Notes: a model not told the origin generated them from the sequence alone. A DNA stretch of 61,921 nt, filler included, from Limisphaerales bacterium (GCA_044225505.1; 3 parts of 3 records of this genome joined end to end with filler, not necessarily neighbours in it), one strand, 5' to 3'. Numbered from the whole stretch's first letter, positions 20,611 through 60,840 are shown. Numbers and translations: made by a program.

Positions 20611-20710
20611 NNNNNNNNNNNNNNNNNNNNNNNNNNNNNNNNNNNNNNNNNNNNTTAATTAATTAANNNNNNNNNNNNNNNNNNNNNNNNNNNNNNNNNN
20701 NNNNNNNNNN
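20611..20710. other. Assembly gap with artificial TTAATTAATTAA linker
   Basis: 100 nt of N surrounding a 12-mer (20656-20667) with stops in all six frames. Confidence 0.97.
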
Positions 20711-41345: not shown

Positions 41346-41445
41346 NNNNNNNNNNNNNNNNNNNNNNNNNNNNNNNNNNNNNNNNNNNNTTAATTAATTA
41401 ANNNNNNNNNNNNNNNNNNNNNNNNNNNNNNNNNNNNNNNNNNNN
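41346..41445. other. Assembly gap with artificial TTAATTAATTAA linker
   Basis: 100 nt of N around the 12-mer at 41390-41401. Confidence 0.97.
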
Positions 41446-52987: not shown

Positions 52988-54145
52988 CTAGGCAGGCGCG
53001 GACGGGTGTGACGTGTCGCAGACGCTGCGGTAAAGCGCTTCGTACTGCGGAACGATGGCTTCCGCCGAGAACCTTGCCTGCGCTCGGATTCGTGCCGCTT
53101 TTCCCTGAGCCGTTCTCAACGCCGGGTCGCGCATGAGTGTTTCCACCGCCGCGACCAAGTCAGCGACATCGCCGGAACGCGCCAAGATCCCGGTCGCGTG
53201 ATTCTCAATTACTTCCGGGATTCCTCCCACGGCCGTGGCGACGCTGGGCCGTCCGAATGCCATGGCTTCGAGGATCCCCAGGCAAAAGCTTTCACTTTCC
53301 GACGTAAATAAGGCGAAATCTGCGACCTGCAGATAGTCTTCCACGTCGTTAACCTTCTCTTTAACGATCAGGCGATCCTTAAGGCCGAGGCGTTCAACGT
53401 CCGGAAGGAAGGGCGCAAAACTTCCACCGGCCAGGATCAGCAACTTGAATCGTTCTCGCGGGCGCAGTCGTGCCACGGTCTCAAGCAGCAGGTCGACCCG
53501 TTTGACCGGGCGCAGATTGGACGAATGCACGATCAGGATTTCGTCTTTCAGCCCCAATTCTTCTCGAACGAGGTGAGCGGGACGGCGTGGCGCGCGCGGG
53601 GCATAGAAGTTGTAAATGACACGCATGTCTCCTTGAAAACCAAGCACCCGCCGGGTTTCATCCCGCAAGTAATTCGAGACTGTCGTGACGGCATCGGAGC
53701 AATTCAACGCGTGGAGAATGGCAGGACCGTATCCTGGATCTCGGCCGAGCAACGTGGTGTCCGTTCCATGCAGAGTCGTCACCACTCGGGGTTGCAGCTC
53801 CTCGGGCAACATCGAGCGGGCGAGGATCGCGGCGGTGGCATGGGGGACTGCGTAATGCACGTGTAACACATCTAATCGATGTTCACGACTCACCTCGGCC
53901 ATGCGCACGGAGAGGGGGAGCGTGTAGTCCGGATACCTGAAAAGCTCGTAGTCGTTGATGATCACCGGGTGAAAGTGGAGGCGGGCGACATCGACCGGGA
54001 GCCGGAAGGGCCTCTCATAACTAATGAAATGGACTTCGTGCCCGCGCCGCGCGAGGTCCTCTCCCAATGCGCAAGCGAGCACTCCGCTCCCGCCCACTGT
54101 GGGATAGCACGTCATCCCAATCCGCATGGGTCGAGACTGGGTCAT
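52988..54145 (-). CDS. bshA: N-acetyl-alpha-D-glucosaminyl L-malate synthase (GT4)
   Basis: IGMTCYPTVGGSG, LHVHYAVPHA, TTLHGTD, HSSNLRPVKRV, SESESFCLGILEAMA. Confidence 0.92.
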   Translation of the reverse strand: MTQSRPMRIGMTCYPTVGGSGVLACALGEDLARRGHEVHFISYERPFRLPVDVARLHFHPVIINDYELFRYPDYTLPLSVRMAEVSREHRLDVLHVHYAVPHATAAILARSMLPEELQPRVVTTLHGTDTTLLGRDPGYGPAILHALNCSDAVTTVSNYLRDETRRVLGFQGDMRVIYNFYAPRAPRRPAHLVREELGLKDEILIVHSSNLRPVKRVDLLLETVARLRPRERFKLLILAGGSFAPFLPDVERLGLKDRLIVKEKVNDVEDYLQVADFALFTSESESFCLGILEAMAFGRPSVATAVGGIPEVIENHATGILARSGDVADLVAAVETLMRDPALRTAQGKAARIRAQARFSAEAIVPQYEALYRSVCDTSHPSAPA

Positions 54146-54146
54146 A

Positions 54147-54875
54147 TTAAAAGCGCCGGGCGCCTGTTCCCAGAGCGATCAGAGACGAGACGACGATTGG
54201 ATCGTTTGGGAAAAGAGCGATGGCATGGCCTATGCCCGCTCTTGCGCCCAGTGCTTGGGCGCGGAGGAGCTGCAGTTCGACATAGTTACGCGTCCGAAGT
54301 TGAGAGGCGTGAGCCTGCATGGATCGCGTCCAGGCCTCCAGAACAGGTGCTTCCGAAACGTTGATGAGCACGGGAGAGATGTCACGAGGCTCGGCGTCCG
54401 AAGTCAGAGCGTAATAGAACAGCTGGCTGGTTGTGTGAGGAGGCAGGGCGCGGAGCTCAGCGAAGCCGCCATACCGCGCCAGTCGGCATGCGTCCCGCAC
54501 CATCCGGCCGAGGCGCGCGTGGTCCGGATGCTGATTTTCCACGAGGCTCGGGGCAAGAACGATTCCCGGTTGCCATTTTCGTATGCTGGCAGCGAGCTGG
54601 ATCGTGTGCGCCGTTTTTACTTCCAAATGAGCGTCTCCGTCCAGTTCGATGAATTCGATCGTGGCGCCGAGCAACGCGGCCCCGGCCTCCGCCTCGCGAC
54701 GCCGCTCTTCGGGTGAACCGTTGGTCGATGCTTCACCGCGCGAGCAGATGACAAAGTGCACCTTTCGGCCTAATTGGGATTCGGAAGCAATCACGCCGCC
54801 GCATCCGAATTCGATGTCGTCCGGATGCGCGCCGAAGACGAGCATGGGCGGCAGATCAATCGGGGAGGTCAACAT
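54147..54875 (-). CDS. bshB1: PIG-L family GlcNAc-malate deacetylase
   Basis: FGAHPDDIEFGCGG, SRGEASTNG, QHPDH, AHASQ; directly upstream of bshA. Confidence 0.85.
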   Translation of the reverse strand: MLTSPIDLPPMLVFGAHPDDIEFGCGGVIASESQLGRKVHFVICSRGEASTNGSPEERRREAEAGAALLGATIEFIELDGDAHLEVKTAHTIQLAASIRKWQPGIVLAPSLVENQHPDHARLGRMVRDACRLARYGGFAELRALPPHTTSQLFYYALTSDAEPRDISPVLINVSEAPVLEAWTRSMQAHASQLRTRNYVELQLLRAQALGARAGIGHAIALFPNDPIVVSSLIALGTGARRF

Positions 54876-55632
54876 AAGCTTCATCAGAGCGGTCAATCGA
54901 ATCGCGGCCAACGAAGGTGATTTCCGGCGTTTCTTCTTTGCGAAGATAGGCCTGTTCACCAGCTCCGGCGATGTAGTGCGTGCATCGGAGCACGGACTGC
55001 ATCCACCGCAAGCGGGTGTCGCGAGTTGGGCTGACCTGCTCTTTGCTGAACGGCACGAGCGGCAACGTCACGAACGAGTCTCCGCCTTCATGCAGCTGCA
55101 ACGCTGTTTCCGTGTAACGAGCGCGGACAATTTCGCCTTCATATGGCACGTCGACAAAGAACTCGGCAATCTCGCAGGCCGCTCGACGCACGGTCGGGTC
55201 GCTCGAGCGGACGACGCGAATTCCCTCGAGCAAGCCCATCTGCCGGTATGAGGCCAGGCAAAAGTCGGCTGGAGTTTGTCCGGAGGTCTCTTTGAAACGG
55301 TCGATCAGGCGAGTCGACACGTAATTCGGGAGCTGTTGGACCGTCTTGGCCTGCCATTCTGGGGCAATCCGCTTCAAGAAGAGCGGTGAGAACTTCCGCT
55401 GCACTTTATTTTCGACGGCGAAGTTCAGCACCGCAGGAATTTGAGTCGTGCGGTGTCGCAGAATGGTGCGTGTTTCTCTCGGATCGTGATCGCTGTCATG
55501 GCAAAAGAAAATAATCTCACCTCCGATTTCCGATTGGAGCCGCCGAGCGGTTTGAATTTTGGCAAATAAGAAACGCCGCGGGAAGAAGCCGCAGGGTTGT
55601 TGCCCGAAGGCGATGACAGGGCTGGTGCTCAT
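54856..55632 (-). CDS. Short (258 aa) BshC-like putative cysteine-adding enzyme
   Basis: GQQPCGFF…K, FF..DSDHD..E and SP..TR..MQ…YIAGAGEQAY parallel the BshC motifs as I recall them (GQQxGL, EDHD..E, RPxxQ…GPGExxY); operonic with bshB1/bshA. Confidence 0.7.
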   Translation of the reverse strand: MSTSPVIAFGQQPCGFFPRRFLFAKIQTARRLQSEIGGEIIFFCHDSDHDPRETRTILRHRTTQIPAVLNFAVENKVQRKFSPLFLKRIAPEWQAKTVQQLPNYVSTRLIDRFKETSGQTPADFCLASYRQMGLLEGIRVVRSSDPTVRRAACEIAEFFVDVPYEGEIVRARYTETALQLHEGGDSFVTLPLVPFSKEQVSPTRDTRLRWMQSVLRCTHYIAGAGEQAYLRKEETPEITFVGRDSIDRSDEAYVDLPD

Positions 55633-57332
55633 GCGGCCTGGGAAGGGGTTGGGCCGTTGGCTGCGGACAACGCCACTTGCAGGACCAGGCTAAAAACCAC
55701 GCAGGCCGCGCAGCCGATCACGTTGTACCAAAGATAGCTAATGCTCAGCGAGCAATACATCGCGATGACCAGAGTCTGAGCCGTCACCGCCGCAATGAAT
55801 ACTGCCGTCCCGCGCACGCGCTTGAGAAAGAACGCCACCAGGAAAATGCCCAGCACGACGCCGTAAAAGATGGAAGCGATAATGTTCAAGGCCTCGATGA
55901 GGTTCTCGGCAAAACTGGCGAAGAGCGCAAACCCAACCGCAAAGCTGCCCCACAGCGCGGTGAACCATTTGGCTACCCGGACGTTGCGCGCCTCGTCATG
56001 CGCGGCGAGTGGTCGGAAATGCCTCCACAGATCGATGGTGGTCGTGGCTGCGAGAGCGTTCAGTTCTCCCGCTTTTGAAGAGAGGGCGGAGGCAAACATG
56101 ACGGCGATCAGCAAGCCAATCGCTCCGTGTGGAAGCTGCGATAGAATAAACGTGATGAACACGTAATCGGAATCCTTCACTTTCGCTCGTGGATCCGCGG
56201 AGAGCAGTGCCTCTTTCGCTTCTTTACGAACATTGTCGACCGCCCGTTGCGCGTCAACCATTGCGGCGCGGGCCTTCGCTCGGGTCGGTGCGTCCGGAGT
56301 TGCGCGCGAGGCGAACCAGGCGCTGACCGTCTGTCGTTTGGCTTCGTGCAATGCGGCATGCTTGGCCTCTATCGCACGAAATTTAGCTCCGTCCGCGGAT
56401 TGCGTGTGCCTATCCCATTCGGCCCGGTTGAAAAAGACGGGGGTATTCGGCTGAAATTGGAAGAACACAAACAGGAGAGCCCCGACCATGACGATGAAGA
56501 ACTGCATCGGTATCTTCAAGACGGCGTTAAACATGAGGCCGAGACGCCCTTCTCGCGCGCCGCCTCCACCGATGTATCGTTGGACCTGCGATTGATCCGT
56601 CCCGAAATAGGAGAGCGAAAGGAACAGACCTCCCAGAAGGCCGCTCCAGAATGTGTAGCGCTTGTCTGGGTCTATCGAGAAGTCCACGGCTTGCAGTTTG
56701 CCCATGGCTCCCGCCATCTCCAACGCGCCGCTGGGCAGTTTCGCAACGAGGATGACAAAGGCCGTCAACATGCCGCCAAAAATGACGGCCATCTGCCATT
56801 TCTGTGTCAGGCTTACGGCGGCACTCCCCCCAGTTACAGTGTAAACGATGACGACCAGCCCGGTGCCCAGGATGGTCAGATTCAAGCGCCATCCCAGGAC
56901 GCTCGAGAGAATGATCGCGGGGGCGTAGATCGTCACGCCGCTCTGCACTCCCCGTTGCAGCAAAAAGAGGCTCGCGCCCAGGAGCCGGGTCTTAGCGTCA
57001 AACCGTCGGCCGAGATATTCGTAGGCGGTGTAAACGCCAAGGCGACGATAGATCGGCAGAAATACCGCGCAGACGATGATGAGAGCGATCGGGAGTCCGA
57101 AATAGTTTTGCACGAATGCAATACCGCTCTCGTACGCCTGGCCAGGGAGCGAGAGATAAGTGACGGTGCTGGCTTGCGTGGCCATGATCGAGAGGCCGAT
57201 CGTCCCCCACTTGGTCGAGCGACTTCCCTTTAAGTACGTATCGAGGTGATCGGTGTGGCGGGTGCGCCACGTGCCGTAGGCAGCGATGCCCAGCATGGTC
57301 CCCAGCAGCACAACCCAATCCAACAGATTCAT
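55629..57332 (-). CDS. Sodium:solute symporter (SSS family)
   Basis: LSIMATQAS, TAYEYLGRRF, YTVTGG, SYFGTDQSQVQRY; many TM helices. Confidence 0.93.
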   Translation of the reverse strand: MNLLDWVVLLGTMLGIAAYGTWRTRHTDHLDTYLKGSRSTKWGTIGLSIMATQASTVTYLSLPGQAYESGIAFVQNYFGLPIALIIVCAVFLPIYRRLGVYTAYEYLGRRFDAKTRLLGASLFLLQRGVQSGVTIYAPAIILSSVLGWRLNLTILGTGLVVIVYTVTGGSAAVSLTQKWQMAVIFGGMLTAFVILVAKLPSGALEMAGAMGKLQAVDFSIDPDKRYTFWSGLLGGLFLSLSYFGTDQSQVQRYIGGGGAREGRLGLMFNAVLKIPMQFFIVMVGALLFVFFQFQPNTPVFFNRAEWDRHTQSADGAKFRAIEAKHAALHEAKRQTVSAWFASRATPDAPTRAKARAAMVDAQRAVDNVRKEAKEALLSADPRAKVKDSDYVFITFILSQLPHGAIGLLIAVMFASALSSKAGELNALAATTTIDLWRHFRPLAAHDEARNVRVAKWFTALWGSFAVGFALFASFAENLIEALNIIASIFYGVVLGIFLVAFFLKRVRGTAVFIAAVTAQTLVIAMYCSLSISYLWYNVIGCAACVVFSLVLQVALSAANGPTPSQAA

Positions 57333-57484
57333 GAAAATGCTCGTGTAAACACGGCGAGCAGGGCCACCACCAGGACGAACCATCCGAAGACGAACAAATA
57401 AACCATTCCCCAACTCCGAAACCCTGGCACGCCCGGCAGTTCATCGTCGGGCGGAGTTTTGGGGAGAGGTTGGGCGGGAATCAT
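57329..57484 (-). CDS. 51-aa single-TM protein, putative symporter accessory subunit (absent from the ORF track)
   Basis: MIPAQPLPKTPPDDELPGVPGFRSWGMVYLFVFGWFVLVVALLAVFTRAFS; ATGA overlaps with both neighbours. Confidence 0.8.
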   Translation of the reverse strand: MIPAQPLPKTPPDDELPGVPGFRSWGMVYLFVFGWFVLVVALLAVFTRAFS

Positions 57485-60000
57485 TTTCCGAGAGAGATAA
57501 GGTTCGCCAGTAGCCGATATGCCCCGGGCACTCCGGCGGGGAGTTGGCGAAAGAAGGCTAGTCCCGTATAAACGTAATAGCCCTTGCCATGCTTGGCGAT
57601 CAACAGGCCGCTCGTCAAAGGTTCCTCACCTGGGTCGCTCATCGCCAGAAGTGTGTCATACTGCGCTTTGGACCAGCTGCTGGGAAAATAGGCGCCTCGC
57701 TCTTGCACCCAGCCGTCAAAATCCTGCGATGTAATGCGGTTCGGAGAAATCAGCGCTGCATGGTCAGGGATCAGAAACGTGACAGGCGCGCGCTCATCCG
57801 TGACGCGAAGTTGCGGGGCCGGGCCTTGAATCGAGAGCGGATAAGGTCCCAGTGCTGGCACATTCAGGCCGTTGGGCCGGTTATACTGCACCACGACGGT
57901 TCCTCCCTGTTCGACATATTCAAACAGATTCGTCACGGTCGACGCCAGGTCTTTACGCTCGTTGAACGCGCGGACTCCCAACACCACGGCGTCGAGCCCG
58001 CGCAGCTTCTCGGTGGTTAAATCCGCTCCTTTCAAGGACGTGACGGCGCAGCCCATCTCTGCCAACGCCTGAGCTGTACTATCGCCCGCCCCAGACACGT
58101 AGCCAATGTTGCGGGCGCGCACGGCAAAGTCCAAACTCAGAGCTCGACTCTGAGCGGGCGGTTGCAGCAGCAGCAAGGGCAAGTGCGGATAGTTGATTTC
58201 AATTCGGTCGTTGGAGTAGCTGGACCCGTTCACGGTGGCAATCGCGGATAAACGCGCCGAGGTTGGCTGGGGCGGAGCGCTCACGTCAAAGCGGACACTC
58301 ACCTTGCTTCCAGCCTCGTCCAGCTGGAACGGCTGCTCGGCAGGCGAGGTTCTCCACCCATCCGGCGTGTCCAGGCGCAGGCGTCCAGTTTGGTTCGCGC
58401 GTCGCGCCACAATTTCCACCACCACCGGTCGTGTGCTTCCGGGCCGGAACAGGGACACCAGAGATTCGAACCTTAACGACACTGGCGGAACCACATCAAC
58501 GCGGCGGTGCCGTTCCTTGCCATTGGCCTGTTCAGGGTATCTCGGCTCGTCCGCAACCACCAGTTGTTGATCACCGACGGCAAAAACATATTCGATGGGA
58601 ATGGCTGGGGCGTTTTCCGGGGTCCCAATCAACTGCGGATCGTCAACCCGGAAGATCCCACTGCTCCCTTCGCGTCGCAGCCAGTAAGGCTGTGTTAACG
58701 CCAAGTCGGGCGGCGCTCGGAAGAGTCCTTCCGCTGTCCGCCTTTGAGTCGAGATCAAGTTTTCGGAGGCGATCGCTGGTGACTCGAGGTGCTGACCACG
58801 CGTCTCCAACCAGCGGACGGGGACTGTGCCACTCAACGACACGGTATAGCGAAGTTTGAGGACTTCCCCTGGCACAATCTCGGGCCGGTCAGCGACTGTC
58901 TCTACCGACAATCCAAGGCAAGCTTGCAGGATGCGATCGAGTTGGGCGCGCTTGTCCGCGAGCACTGCATCGGACGGCAAGTTGCGGAGTTTCGTCCGAA
59001 TCGTCAACAACGCGGGGACCGACGCGGACGGGTTGTTCGTCTCGAAACTGTCGATGATCTTTGCTGTCAGAGGGCCAATTTCTGCTCCTCCAGGCACTCT
59101 CGCCCACGTCGTATCGATGCCGTCAAAGATGTCATTGGTTGCCGAAGCCCCTCCCAGGATCATGAACGTCTGGACATTGGGACCGCTGCCTCCCCGCCCG
59201 CCAAAATTGCTGAATCCTTGCGTAATGTGCATGGCGCGGCTGCGCCCAGCAATGGTGCTGAAGGATTCACCCGTGACCCGGTCAGTCCCGGCAATATCCG
59301 TGGTGACAGTGGGGCCTGTTGGCCCCGCGTTGTTCCGTCCCCCAAAGCCATTCCAAGCGACTCGTTTTGGCTGCCAGATCGACAGTCCTTGCGCCAGTTG
59401 CTCCGGATACGCCTTGGGATCTCCCGCCAGGTTGAACGCTTCGACCCCTAGAATCCCCGACGCGGTGTGATGACCATGCCCTCCGCTGCCCGGAGGTATG
59501 GGAAACCTTGTCACAATCACATCCGGCCGAAACTGGCGGATGATCCGGACGACATCGCCCAGGACCTGATCCCGATCCCAGAAGCGCAGCGTCTCTTCCG
59601 GCGTCTTGGAGAAGCCAAAATCGATCGCTCGGGTGAAGAACTGTCGCCCGCCATCCAGTCGTCGTGCCGCTAGCAGTTCCTGAGTACGGGCCACGCCCAG
59701 TTTTTCATCAAACTCAGGCCCGATCTCGTTCTGGCCACCGTCGCCTCGGGTCAGGGAGAGATAAGCCGTTCGATAGCCTCGACCGCGCGCGAAGTAAGTG
59801 ATGAGCGCGGTGTTTTCGTCGTCCGGGTGTGCGCCGATGTGGAGCACGGTCGCCACGGTGGAGAAACTCCGGAGTTCCTCCAGGATTGCGGCAGGCGTGG
59901 TGGGAAGAAACTCGGTGGCCAGGGCAGGCGTGGCTAAAAGCCACACCGCCCCCAAGCTAGCCGAGGTTAGAAGAGCGCGCGCGCGCCGAACGGCACTCAT
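57481..60000 (-). CDS. Secreted large PIG-L/LmbE family deacetylase/amidase with Ig-like and C-terminal class I glutamine-amidotransferase-like domains
   Basis: Signal peptide (…ATPALA|TE), AHPDDE, TRGDGGQN, DFGFSK, HGHH, VVQYN, GWVQERG. Confidence 0.88.
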   Translation of the reverse strand: MSAVRRARALLTSASLGAVWLLATPALATEFLPTTPAAILEELRSFSTVATVLHIGAHPDDENTALITYFARGRGYRTAYLSLTRGDGGQNEIGPEFDEKLGVARTQELLAARRLDGGRQFFTRAIDFGFSKTPEETLRFWDRDQVLGDVVRIIRQFRPDVIVTRFPIPPGSGGHGHHTASGILGVEAFNLAGDPKAYPEQLAQGLSIWQPKRVAWNGFGGRNNAGPTGPTVTTDIAGTDRVTGESFSTIAGRSRAMHITQGFSNFGGRGGSGPNVQTFMILGGASATNDIFDGIDTTWARVPGGAEIGPLTAKIIDSFETNNPSASVPALLTIRTKLRNLPSDAVLADKRAQLDRILQACLGLSVETVADRPEIVPGEVLKLRYTVSLSGTVPVRWLETRGQHLESPAIASENLISTQRRTAEGLFRAPPDLALTQPYWLRREGSSGIFRVDDPQLIGTPENAPAIPIEYVFAVGDQQLVVADEPRYPEQANGKERHRRVDVVPPVSLRFESLVSLFRPGSTRPVVVEIVARRANQTGRLRLDTPDGWRTSPAEQPFQLDEAGSKVSVRFDVSAPPQPTSARLSAIATVNGSSYSNDRIEINYPHLPLLLLQPPAQSRALSLDFAVRARNIGYVSGAGDSTAQALAEMGCAVTSLKGADLTTEKLRGLDAVVLGVRAFNERKDLASTVTNLFEYVEQGGTVVVQYNRPNGLNVPALGPYPLSIQGPAPQLRVTDERAPVTFLIPDHAALISPNRITSQDFDGWVQERGAYFPSSWSKAQYDTLLAMSDPGEEPLTSGLLIAKHGKGYYVYTGLAFFRQLPAGVPGAYRLLANLISLGK

Positions 60001-60003
60001 GCG

Positions 60004-60573
60004 CTATTTCTTCACGGCAAATGGCACAGAATACTCTGTGTTCTCCCAAGATAATTTGAGCAGGCCGCCGCCGCTGGGATTCTTCTGCACGGCCATGGTG
60101 AATTGTTCAACCGGGGAAGCGGTCGCCGCCTTGGTCAAATCGACCCGGGCCAAGTCGTTCTTCTCGTCGACGGGAACACCCCATTGGCCGATCTTCTTGC
60201 TGATGGCGAGTTTGGCGGTTCCCGCTTCGTCCGGCACCATATAAAGAGTGTAAGCACCGGCAGGCAGGTCAAAGCCTCCCAAGGTAATGGGCTGTTGGGT
60301 GATGAGCAACGTCGCTTCGTCCGATCCCATCCGCCAGGCCTTGCCATACGGCACCAGCCCGCCCCAAATCTTTCGCACTTCGCCTGTTTTCGGACTTTTG
60401 GTGTAAGGGCGGCCGTAAGTGACCGTGACGCGATTGCCATCAATGACCGCGCTCGTTGTTTCGTGGGGACTATTGCCGCCCGTGGACGCTGCGCGTGTTG
60501 GGGATTGCGCGTTGCTGAGGGCCGTCGTGACGACCAGCGCGGCTAAGCTAAGCGCGTATAGAGTTCTGTTCAT
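60004..60573 (-). CDS. Secreted DUF2911 family protein
   Basis: SP…VTYGRP, GGLVPYGKAWRMGSDEAT, PAGAYTL, EQFT, LSWENT; signal peptide. Confidence 0.88.
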   Translation of the reverse strand: MNRTLYALSLAALVVTTALSNAQSPTRAASTGGNSPHETTSAVIDGNRVTVTYGRPYTKSPKTGEVRKIWGGLVPYGKAWRMGSDEATLLITQQPITLGGFDLPAGAYTLYMVPDEAGTAKLAISKKIGQWGVPVDEKNDLARVDLTKAATASPVEQFTMAVQKNPSGGGLLKLSWENTEYSVPFAVKK

Positions 60574-60840
60574 GGAATTAAGGTTGTTGCCAAGATTTTG
60601 GTTTGCAGTCCGCAACTAAGCCCCGGACAACTGGTTGTACCCGGCTTGCGGCGATGCATGAATTTCAAGACAGTCTCCATCACCAATCGGTTTCACTCAA
60701 TGCTGATTTTTTTAAAGGACCGCACCAGCTTGAATATCCCATCCTTGCGATCGCGGTCCCCCACAACGGCATTGGGTCGATTGGTTAGGAGCAAATTGCT
60801 CTCGGTTTGCCACTTTGAGCCTCCTTCGCTGAGGACCGCT

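Follow-up and report, generated by a model that had tools for sequence, protein, structure and literature searches.

BshC, the protein assigned to the cysteine-adding step of bacillithiol (BSH) synthesis, has a published structure in which a Rossmann core is accompanied by CP1, CP2 and a coiled coil that serves dimerisation; citrate occupies its active site, and a second pocket contains ADP. The same accounts give the activated cysteine donor as unknown and name MshC as the protein performing the analogous step in mycothiol synthesis (PMC4360819, PMC5790435). We analysed a stretch of DNA of 61,921 nucleotides, filler included, from a Limisphaerales bacterium (GCA_044225505.1). This stretch, referred to here as the window, consists of three contigs joined by N runs at 20611-20710 and 41346-41445; the middle piece (20711-41345) is contig C250, and the gene cluster of interest lies wholly in the third contig (C251). 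The cluster contains a gene at 54856..55632 on the minus strand whose reading frame, profiles and predicted fold identify its 258-aa product, hereafter X, as a minimal BshC-like Rossmann-core protein. X belongs to a branch of the BshC superfamily that is half-size, had no annotation before and stands in for BshC in many Verrucomicrobiota, and it probably serves the same function.

The X open reading frame (ORF) starts with ATG and comprises 258 codons. A first-pass annotation of the window had described an intact ORF carrying three ordered motifs and ending about 30 residues after a GxGE motif, and this description was borne out in each respect. GQQPCGFF...K occupies residues 10-25, CHDSDHDPRE residues 44-53 and SPTRDTRLRWMQ...YIAGAGEQAY residues 201-229, and the C-terminal end of the protein is 32 residues past E226 of the GAGE motif. 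The same annotation had the ORF overlapped by its neighbours at both ends. At the 5' end this was confirmed, as the upstream symporter gene shares the sequence ATGA with X, its own stop codon overlapping the ATG; at the 3' end it is uncertain and hinges on the start codon of the downstream deacetylase gene. An overlap exists there only if the deacetylase starts at GTG 54959, giving a long ORF that shares 104 bases with X, or at ATG 54884. As the PIG-L domain begins at residue 40 of the long ORF, and as BshB matches in related loci begin 11-20 bases past the end of X, we favour ATG 54845, which is 10 bases past the X stop codon.

Standard BshC models had been expected to miss X, and they did. 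No Pfam or NCBIfam model matched X at E ≤ 0.1, none of 22 X family members matched PF10079 at E ≤ 10, and the NCBIfam BshC model TIGR03998 failed to match X in either a protein or a genome search. A phmmer search of PDB sequences with X returned nothing at E ≤ 10, a search of the same sequences with an X family profile returned only antibody chains (E 1.8), and the best BLASTP alignment of X with a Verrucomicrobial BshC had an E of 0.094 and covered just 17 residues. Profile-profile comparison was then carried out with hhalign, using the 22 X sequences, from which frame-shifted representatives had been left out, and 27 canonical BshC sequences. This yielded a probability of 95.4% (E 1.7e-8) over 219 columns, and a probability of 97.5% (E 2.3e-11) in global mode, in which residues 1-258 of X were placed on residues 82-423 of the 544-aa Bacillus BshC. 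The latter protein consists of PF10079 (Rossmann-like) at residues 1-383 and a coiled coil at residues 386-544. BshC has 25 invariant columns in the region of residues 82-390, of which 13 carry the identical residue in X (G91, Q92, Q93, K106, D135, D137, E140, F286, S333, R339, G355, E358 and Y361), and the cores of all three BshC motifs (GQQ..G..K; EDHD..E; AGPxE.AY) are kept.

An AlphaFold model of X built without templates had a predicted local distance difference test (pLDDT) score of 95 and a predicted template modelling (pTM) score of 0.91. Comparison of an X model with B. subtilis BshC had been proposed as a check on the assignment, and when the model was searched against the PDB with Foldseek, the sole match at E ≤ 0.001 was this very protein (4WBD; E 3.4e-10, TM score 0.65 on the query). 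VIA-align superimposed 242 of the 258 residues on 4WBD with a root-mean-square deviation of 2.7 and a Z of 20.2. The runner-up was class I LysRS (Z 14.3), and other class I synthetase cores scored 9.4 or less. In the ESM Atlas, a resource based on a protein language model, BshC Rossmann clusters came next after the two clusters of the X family itself, with a score of 0.91. X thus has the HUP/Rossmann core fold in common with BshC (4WBD; PF10079 plus PF24850; TIGR03998; YllA), as well as the loops GQQ...K, DHD..E and AGxGE.AY, whereas it differs in length (258 aa versus about 520-570 aa) and is only about 17-19% identical to it. The HUP fold class is also common to X and the class I aminoacyl-tRNA synthetases (LysRS 1IRX, TyrRS, GluRS, CysRS), although X is much nearer to BshC than to any of them by VIA-align; the Z scores for TyrRS, GluRS and CysRS were 8-9.4. 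A pattern search found neither a HIGH nor a KMSKS motif in X, and no synthetase model in Pfam or NCBIfam matched it; the same was true of models for MshC, which we take to be a CysRS-like mycothiol ligase. From the homology, the fold and the retained motifs we conclude that X is a remote, divergent and minimal member of the BshC superfamily.

The proposal that X retains only the catalytic core of BshC holds in that the C-terminal coiled-coil dimerisation domain (PF24850) is gone, X ending where the coiled coil of BshC begins. It has to be amended in that the losses extend further. The first ~81 residues of BshC are also missing, residue 1 of X being aligned to residue 82 of the 544-aa protein, as are about 45 internal residues in the global alignment. 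The gene upstream ends at the X start codon, and the N-terminal segment of ~80 residues of PF10079 has no counterpart there. A search of the window's genome for a stand-alone PF24850 coiled coil found none (best E 0.29). A split-gene BshC was thus ruled out, there being no separate coiled coil or other BshC piece in this genome. X also has invariant residues of its own that are absent from canonical BshC: C125 and H219 are present in 22 of 22 family members and C217 in 21 of 22, while the alignment of 27 canonical sequences contains no invariant cysteine column. Structure prediction for two copies of X gave homodimer scores of 0.00 and 0.00, a result that weighs neither way.

X is the representative of a large family. 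A word-indexed protein search identified at least 6705 homologues at E ≤ 0.001; the best 120 of these are 254-289 aa long, none of the members has a functional name ('hypothetical protein' where named) or a precomputed Pfam domain, and the named sources are all Verrucomicrobial. An exhaustive phmmer search with X of 1.84 billion cluster representatives gave 243 matches at E ≤ 0.001, in which full-length family members reach down to 33-46% identity. Among the best 150 of the 243 there was no protein of BshC length (about 520-570 aa), the longest being 475 aa, so that the homologues are of the size of X and the alternative first raised, that X is a truncation of a full-length protein, does not apply. 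Given the homologues, at least 6705 in number, and given that X is also the best-conserved protein of its cluster, the ORF is not a chance frame. The case is different for short proteins that match the canonical BshC profile, of which 161 were found. These too are half-size or smaller, and they carry PF10079, which X does not match; they are mostly single sequences of scattered lengths (91-272 aa among the 120 listed), several of them labelled partial, in contrast to a family of at least 6705 members of about 258 aa. As judged from their sequences, they look like gene pieces and not like a family of fixed length. One 257-aa member of the X family (P0169; ~32% identity) no longer carries GQQ, DHD or C217, and it may be an inactive or re-purposed paralogue. 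The range that we claim for X is Verrucomicrobiota; some loci were labelled by their submitters as belonging elsewhere (Bifidobacteriaceae, Obscuribacterales, Methylomirabilota and others), and these labels are unconfirmed.

The X gene is followed in the window by two genes of a BSH-type pathway. The nearer one, at 54147..54845 on the minus strand (start uncertain, with ATG 54845 favoured), encodes a BshB-like PIG-L deacetylase (PF02585, 79.1 bits). The second, at 52988..54145 on the minus strand, encodes BshA, the GT4-type N-acetylglucosaminyl-L-malate synthase, and scores 386.7 bits against the TIGR03999 equivalog, for which the cut-off is 273.7. X had been thought to sit where bshC is expected, and this was found to be the case: in a genome of this phylum whose BshC is canonical (521 aa), the genes run bshC-bshB-bshA, so that X takes the bshC slot upstream of bshB-bshA. 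Conservation of this arrangement was assessed in two sets of loci, the best 80 of 575 stretches encoding an X relative in a scan of species genomes and 80 metagenome loci with identities to X reaching down to 41-55%; the metagenome scan was aimed at divergent members and gave mostly the main family again. All synteny counts refer to loci with enough flanking sequence. The gene next after X is bshB or bshA in 72 of 73 genome loci and 59 of 60 metagenome loci, that is, X adjoins one of them as its upstream neighbour in 131 of 133 evaluable loci. A BshB-like deacetylase follows X in 61 of 64 genome loci; for bshA, a downstream position was counted in 62 of 64 such loci and in 39 of 40 from metagenomes. 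X was followed directly by bshA, with no bshB between, in 17 of 40 evaluable metagenome loci (among L105-L172, e.g. L153:6001-7871); to go by gene order, the deacetylase of this branch must be encoded elsewhere or have been replaced. In both sets, no protein of the cluster is better conserved than X. Median identities to the proteins of the window are 71% for X, 69% for BshA, 65% for BshB, 61% for the symporter and 55% for the 839-aa PIG-L protein described below in the genome loci, and 58, 51, 45, 52 and 43%, respectively, in the metagenome loci, which are more distant.

The most divergent X-like gene found (L099:3402-8756, 41% identity) occurs in a different setting, although a PIG-L deacetylase is still its neighbour: it is placed between a GNAT acetyltransferase gene and the convergent deacetylase gene, with gatA-like and gatB genes at the flanks and no bshA in 6 kb. 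This set of ligase, deacetylase and acetyltransferase recalls the trio MshC, MshB and MshD, which act in these three capacities in mycothiol synthesis.

The distribution of X was determined in a sample of 251 genomes of the phylum. X is present in 15 genomes, BshA above its cut-off in 17 and PF10079 BshC in two. The 17 BshA-positive genomes divide into 15 with X and without PF10079 and two with PF10079 and without X, so that BshC and X are mutually exclusive among them. Linkage to bshA had been suggested as a further check; in all 15 X genomes bshA is on the same contig within 2.4 kb of X, in line with the locus counts given above. PF10079 was also absent from each of five further X-bearing genomes that were reached through the loci. 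Several of the sampled genomes (G177, G180, G189, G237) consist of one contig each and may therefore stem from isolates. The genome from which the window comes is 9.04 Mb in size and 95% complete, and searches of it for BshC with PF10079 and TIGR03998 found none. It has a single cysS-like gene, from which it follows that there is no MshC-type ligase, and replacement of BshC by an enzyme of that type was thus ruled out.

From these data we consider it probable, at roughly 0.65, that X fills the BshC step of the BshA-BshB pathway in a large group of Verrucomicrobiota and adds cysteine to GlcN-malate. BshA would make GlcNAc-malate, the PIG-L deacetylase would turn this into GlcN-malate, and X would join an amino acid, which is most probably cysteine, to its free amine; the pathway would yield BSH or a close derivative. 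X would do so as a HUP/Rossmann core alone, with the three conserved loops positioned after the parallel strands. What the data themselves show is that X is homologous to BshC, has its fold, retains its motifs, is of conserved length, keeps its place in the gene order and complements it in phyletic distribution; the substrate of X, cysteine as the added group and the identity of the product are what we infer from that position.

Several observations weigh against this interpretation. X misses every curated BshC sequence model and two of the three parts of BshC are gone from it, and the canonical BshC reaction has itself never been reconstituted in vitro, according to the relevant portions of the published accounts (PMC5790435, PMC4360819). 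The deacetylase scores 131.6 bits against the TIGR04001 model of BshB1 and so falls short of the cut-off (182.5). The 15 genomes with X represent 10 genera, and 12 of them belong to one family; as they are kin, their number overstates the independence of the pattern. The redox partners differ as well. YtxJ and YpdA appear as BSH partners in a published phylogenomic profile, as given in part of that account (PMC5790435). In our sample they accompany canonical BshC and not X: YtxJ/BrxC is above cut-off in two of two BshC genomes versus none of 15 X genomes, and the same counts were obtained for YpdA/Bdr. A search for BrxA/B (PF06491) in the window's genome was negative. The absence of YpdA/Bdr and YtxJ from the X genomes suggests that the product, or its use, may differ from BSH, in line with the BSH variant that the first-pass annotation had offered as one possibility beside another acyl donor. 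The proteins known to use and recycle BSH are thus absent where X stands in for BshC, and any BSH made here would lack the known means of keeping it reduced.

The upstream part of the cluster bears on how these observations are to be read. The conserved order of the whole cluster is DUF2911, secreted PIG-L, symporter, X, BshB and BshA, all encoded on the minus strand in the window. The gene at 55629..57413 encodes a sodium:solute symporter of the SSF family (PF00474, 126.3 bits; TIGR00813, 223.4 bits), the gene at 57481..60000 an 839-aa PIG-L protein (PIGL839; PF02585 at residues 53-188), and the gene at 60004..60615, the first of the cluster, a DUF2911 protein (PF11138, 126.8 bits). The symporter gene precedes X in 68 of 73 genome loci and in 47 of the 48 from metagenomes, and two of the five misses in the genome loci are artefacts of the distance rule (a gene overlap of a few bases in L072 and a 2-kb gap in L087). 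PIGL839 is encoded further upstream in 57 of 62 genome loci and 28 of 29 metagenome loci, and a DUF2911 homologue precedes it in 51 of 61 long loci. Judged from its sequence, the N-terminus of PIGL839 reads as a signal peptide. Its best NCBIfam match is the mycothiol conjugate amidase Mca (E 2.1e-11, far below the cut-off), and its look-alikes in the ESM Atlas are PIG-L/LmbE proteins of 830-850 aa from Acidobacteriota and Bacteroidota. Among the 251 sampled genomes, PIGL839 turned up in 16 of the 17 that are BshA-positive and never in the remaining 234. One of the canonical BshC genomes, which also has YtxJ and YpdA, carries the PIGL839-SSF pair as adjacent genes on a contig other than that of bshC. 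This distribution indicates that the accessory genes are tied to BshA-type pathways of both kinds, and PIGL839 may act in the turnover of the thiol or of GlcN-malate. In a locus with canonical BshC (L013:738-1496), a gene for a 252-aa class I S-adenosylmethionine (SAM) methyltransferase ends inside the bshC start; its product could be an NmbA-like N-methyl-bacillithiol synthase.

The missing redox partners are also what would be seen if X had kept the fold and the pathway position of BshC and taken up other chemistry, adding a group other than cysteine or acting on another amine, with a GlcN-malate metabolite as the product in place of bacillithiol and possibly no redox thiol at all. The invariant C125 and H219 and nearly invariant C217, which have no equivalent in BshC, fit such a shift, as do the retention of only 13 of the 25 invariant columns and the score of the BshB-like enzyme below the equivalog cut-off. 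The pathway around X speaks for BshC chemistry, however. BshA exceeds the cut-off of the GlcNAc-malate synthase equivalog by more than 100 bits, the conserved BshC loops are kept in X, and the occurrence of the PIGL839-SSF pair in a genome with canonical BshC, YtxJ and YpdA suggests that the X and BshC systems deal with the same class of metabolite. Furthermore, the glutathione genes gshB (TIGR01380) and gshA (PF04262, E. coli-type; other gshA types were not searched) were not found in the window's genome, which would leave its need for a thiol unmet if X did not help to make one. We therefore regard a change of chemistry as rather unlikely, though it deserves more weight than the two explanations that follow.

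One of these concerns the source of the substrate and not the reaction, which would be the same as in our preferred interpretation. The secreted PIG-L protein would split BSH or its conjugates, whether exported or of environmental origin, outside the cytoplasm, the symporter would import GlcN-malate and X would add cysteine again. The regular placement of the DUF2911, PIGL839 and symporter genes directly upstream of X, the restriction of PIGL839 to BshA-positive genomes, its putative signal peptide and its weak resemblance to Mca are all consistent with salvage, but the occurrence of both bshA and bshB in the same cluster points to de novo synthesis, and PIGL839 is encoded far from the cluster in two genomes. 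Moreover, kin may share a gene order by descent even where the genes have no link in function. On balance we think it improbable that X works mainly in salvage. The extent of what X has lost, together with its invisibility to curated models, could also mean that it is what remains of BshC without catalytic function, acting perhaps as a scaffold or regulator, and that an unrelated enzyme encoded elsewhere adds the cysteine. We consider this very improbable, as a remnant would hardly be the best-conserved protein of its cluster over wide distances, form a large family of fixed length, keep the loop residues that are invariant in BshC and have a fold predicted with very high confidence; nor is there a second CysRS-like ligase in the genome that could take over the step.

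Cysteine addition to GlcN-malate by X remains our preferred interpretation. A more far-reaching and distinctly speculative version of it is that the X clusters constitute a separate low-molecular-weight thiol system of Verrucomicrobiota that works without the known bacillithiol reductase and bacilliredoxins. If a bare Rossmann core did the ligation in such a system, catalysis would require neither the N-terminal part of BshC nor its coiled coil. Zinc selects cysteine in CysRS and in MshC, and by analogy C125, C217 and H219, which are specific to X, may hold a metal that selects cysteine. The secreted PIG-L amidase, the DUF2911 protein and the symporter would then recycle the thiol or its conjugates in a loop that runs from outside to inside, much as in the logic of the gamma-glutamyl cycle.

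DNA nearly identical to the region 52988-60000 was found in metagenome runs from activated sludge, bioreactors and wastewater. Some part of this region occurs in 20 runs from 13 studies, and half or more of the sampled words are present in at least nine runs; the run with the largest share may be the sample from which the genome came. Four runs that were labelled as RNA, or guessed to be RNA, were compared with the cluster. In one metatranscriptome, contigs of 219 and 160 bases matched X (54867-55066, without differences) and bshA, respectively, and another of these runs contained a 251-base contig on the symporter gene. As DNA carry-over is possible in RNA runs, these contigs hint only weakly at transcription of the cluster.

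In the literature that we searched, on bacillithiol in Verrucomicrobia and on BshC structure and activity in vitro, no report of a short BshC was found, the search being limited to wordings of that kind. According to Hiras et al. (2018), no low-molecular-weight thiol had been documented or predicted in Verrucomicrobia (PMC6282198). The survey procedures set out in portions of PMC6282198 and PMC12719100 required BLAST similarity to BshC together with a similar length, and surveys with both requirements would miss the X family. X would fill this gap in the printed record on Verrucomicrobial thiols. As a natural and strongly conserved half-size homologue that occupies the same slot, it provides a working definition of the minimal BshC unit, and it offers a smaller protein for biochemical and structural work on the BshC reaction. 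For the organisms themselves, the linked genes for a secreted PIG-L protein, an SSF symporter and a DUF2911 protein, together with the absence of YpdA and YtxJ, point to an unexplored form of thiol turnover.

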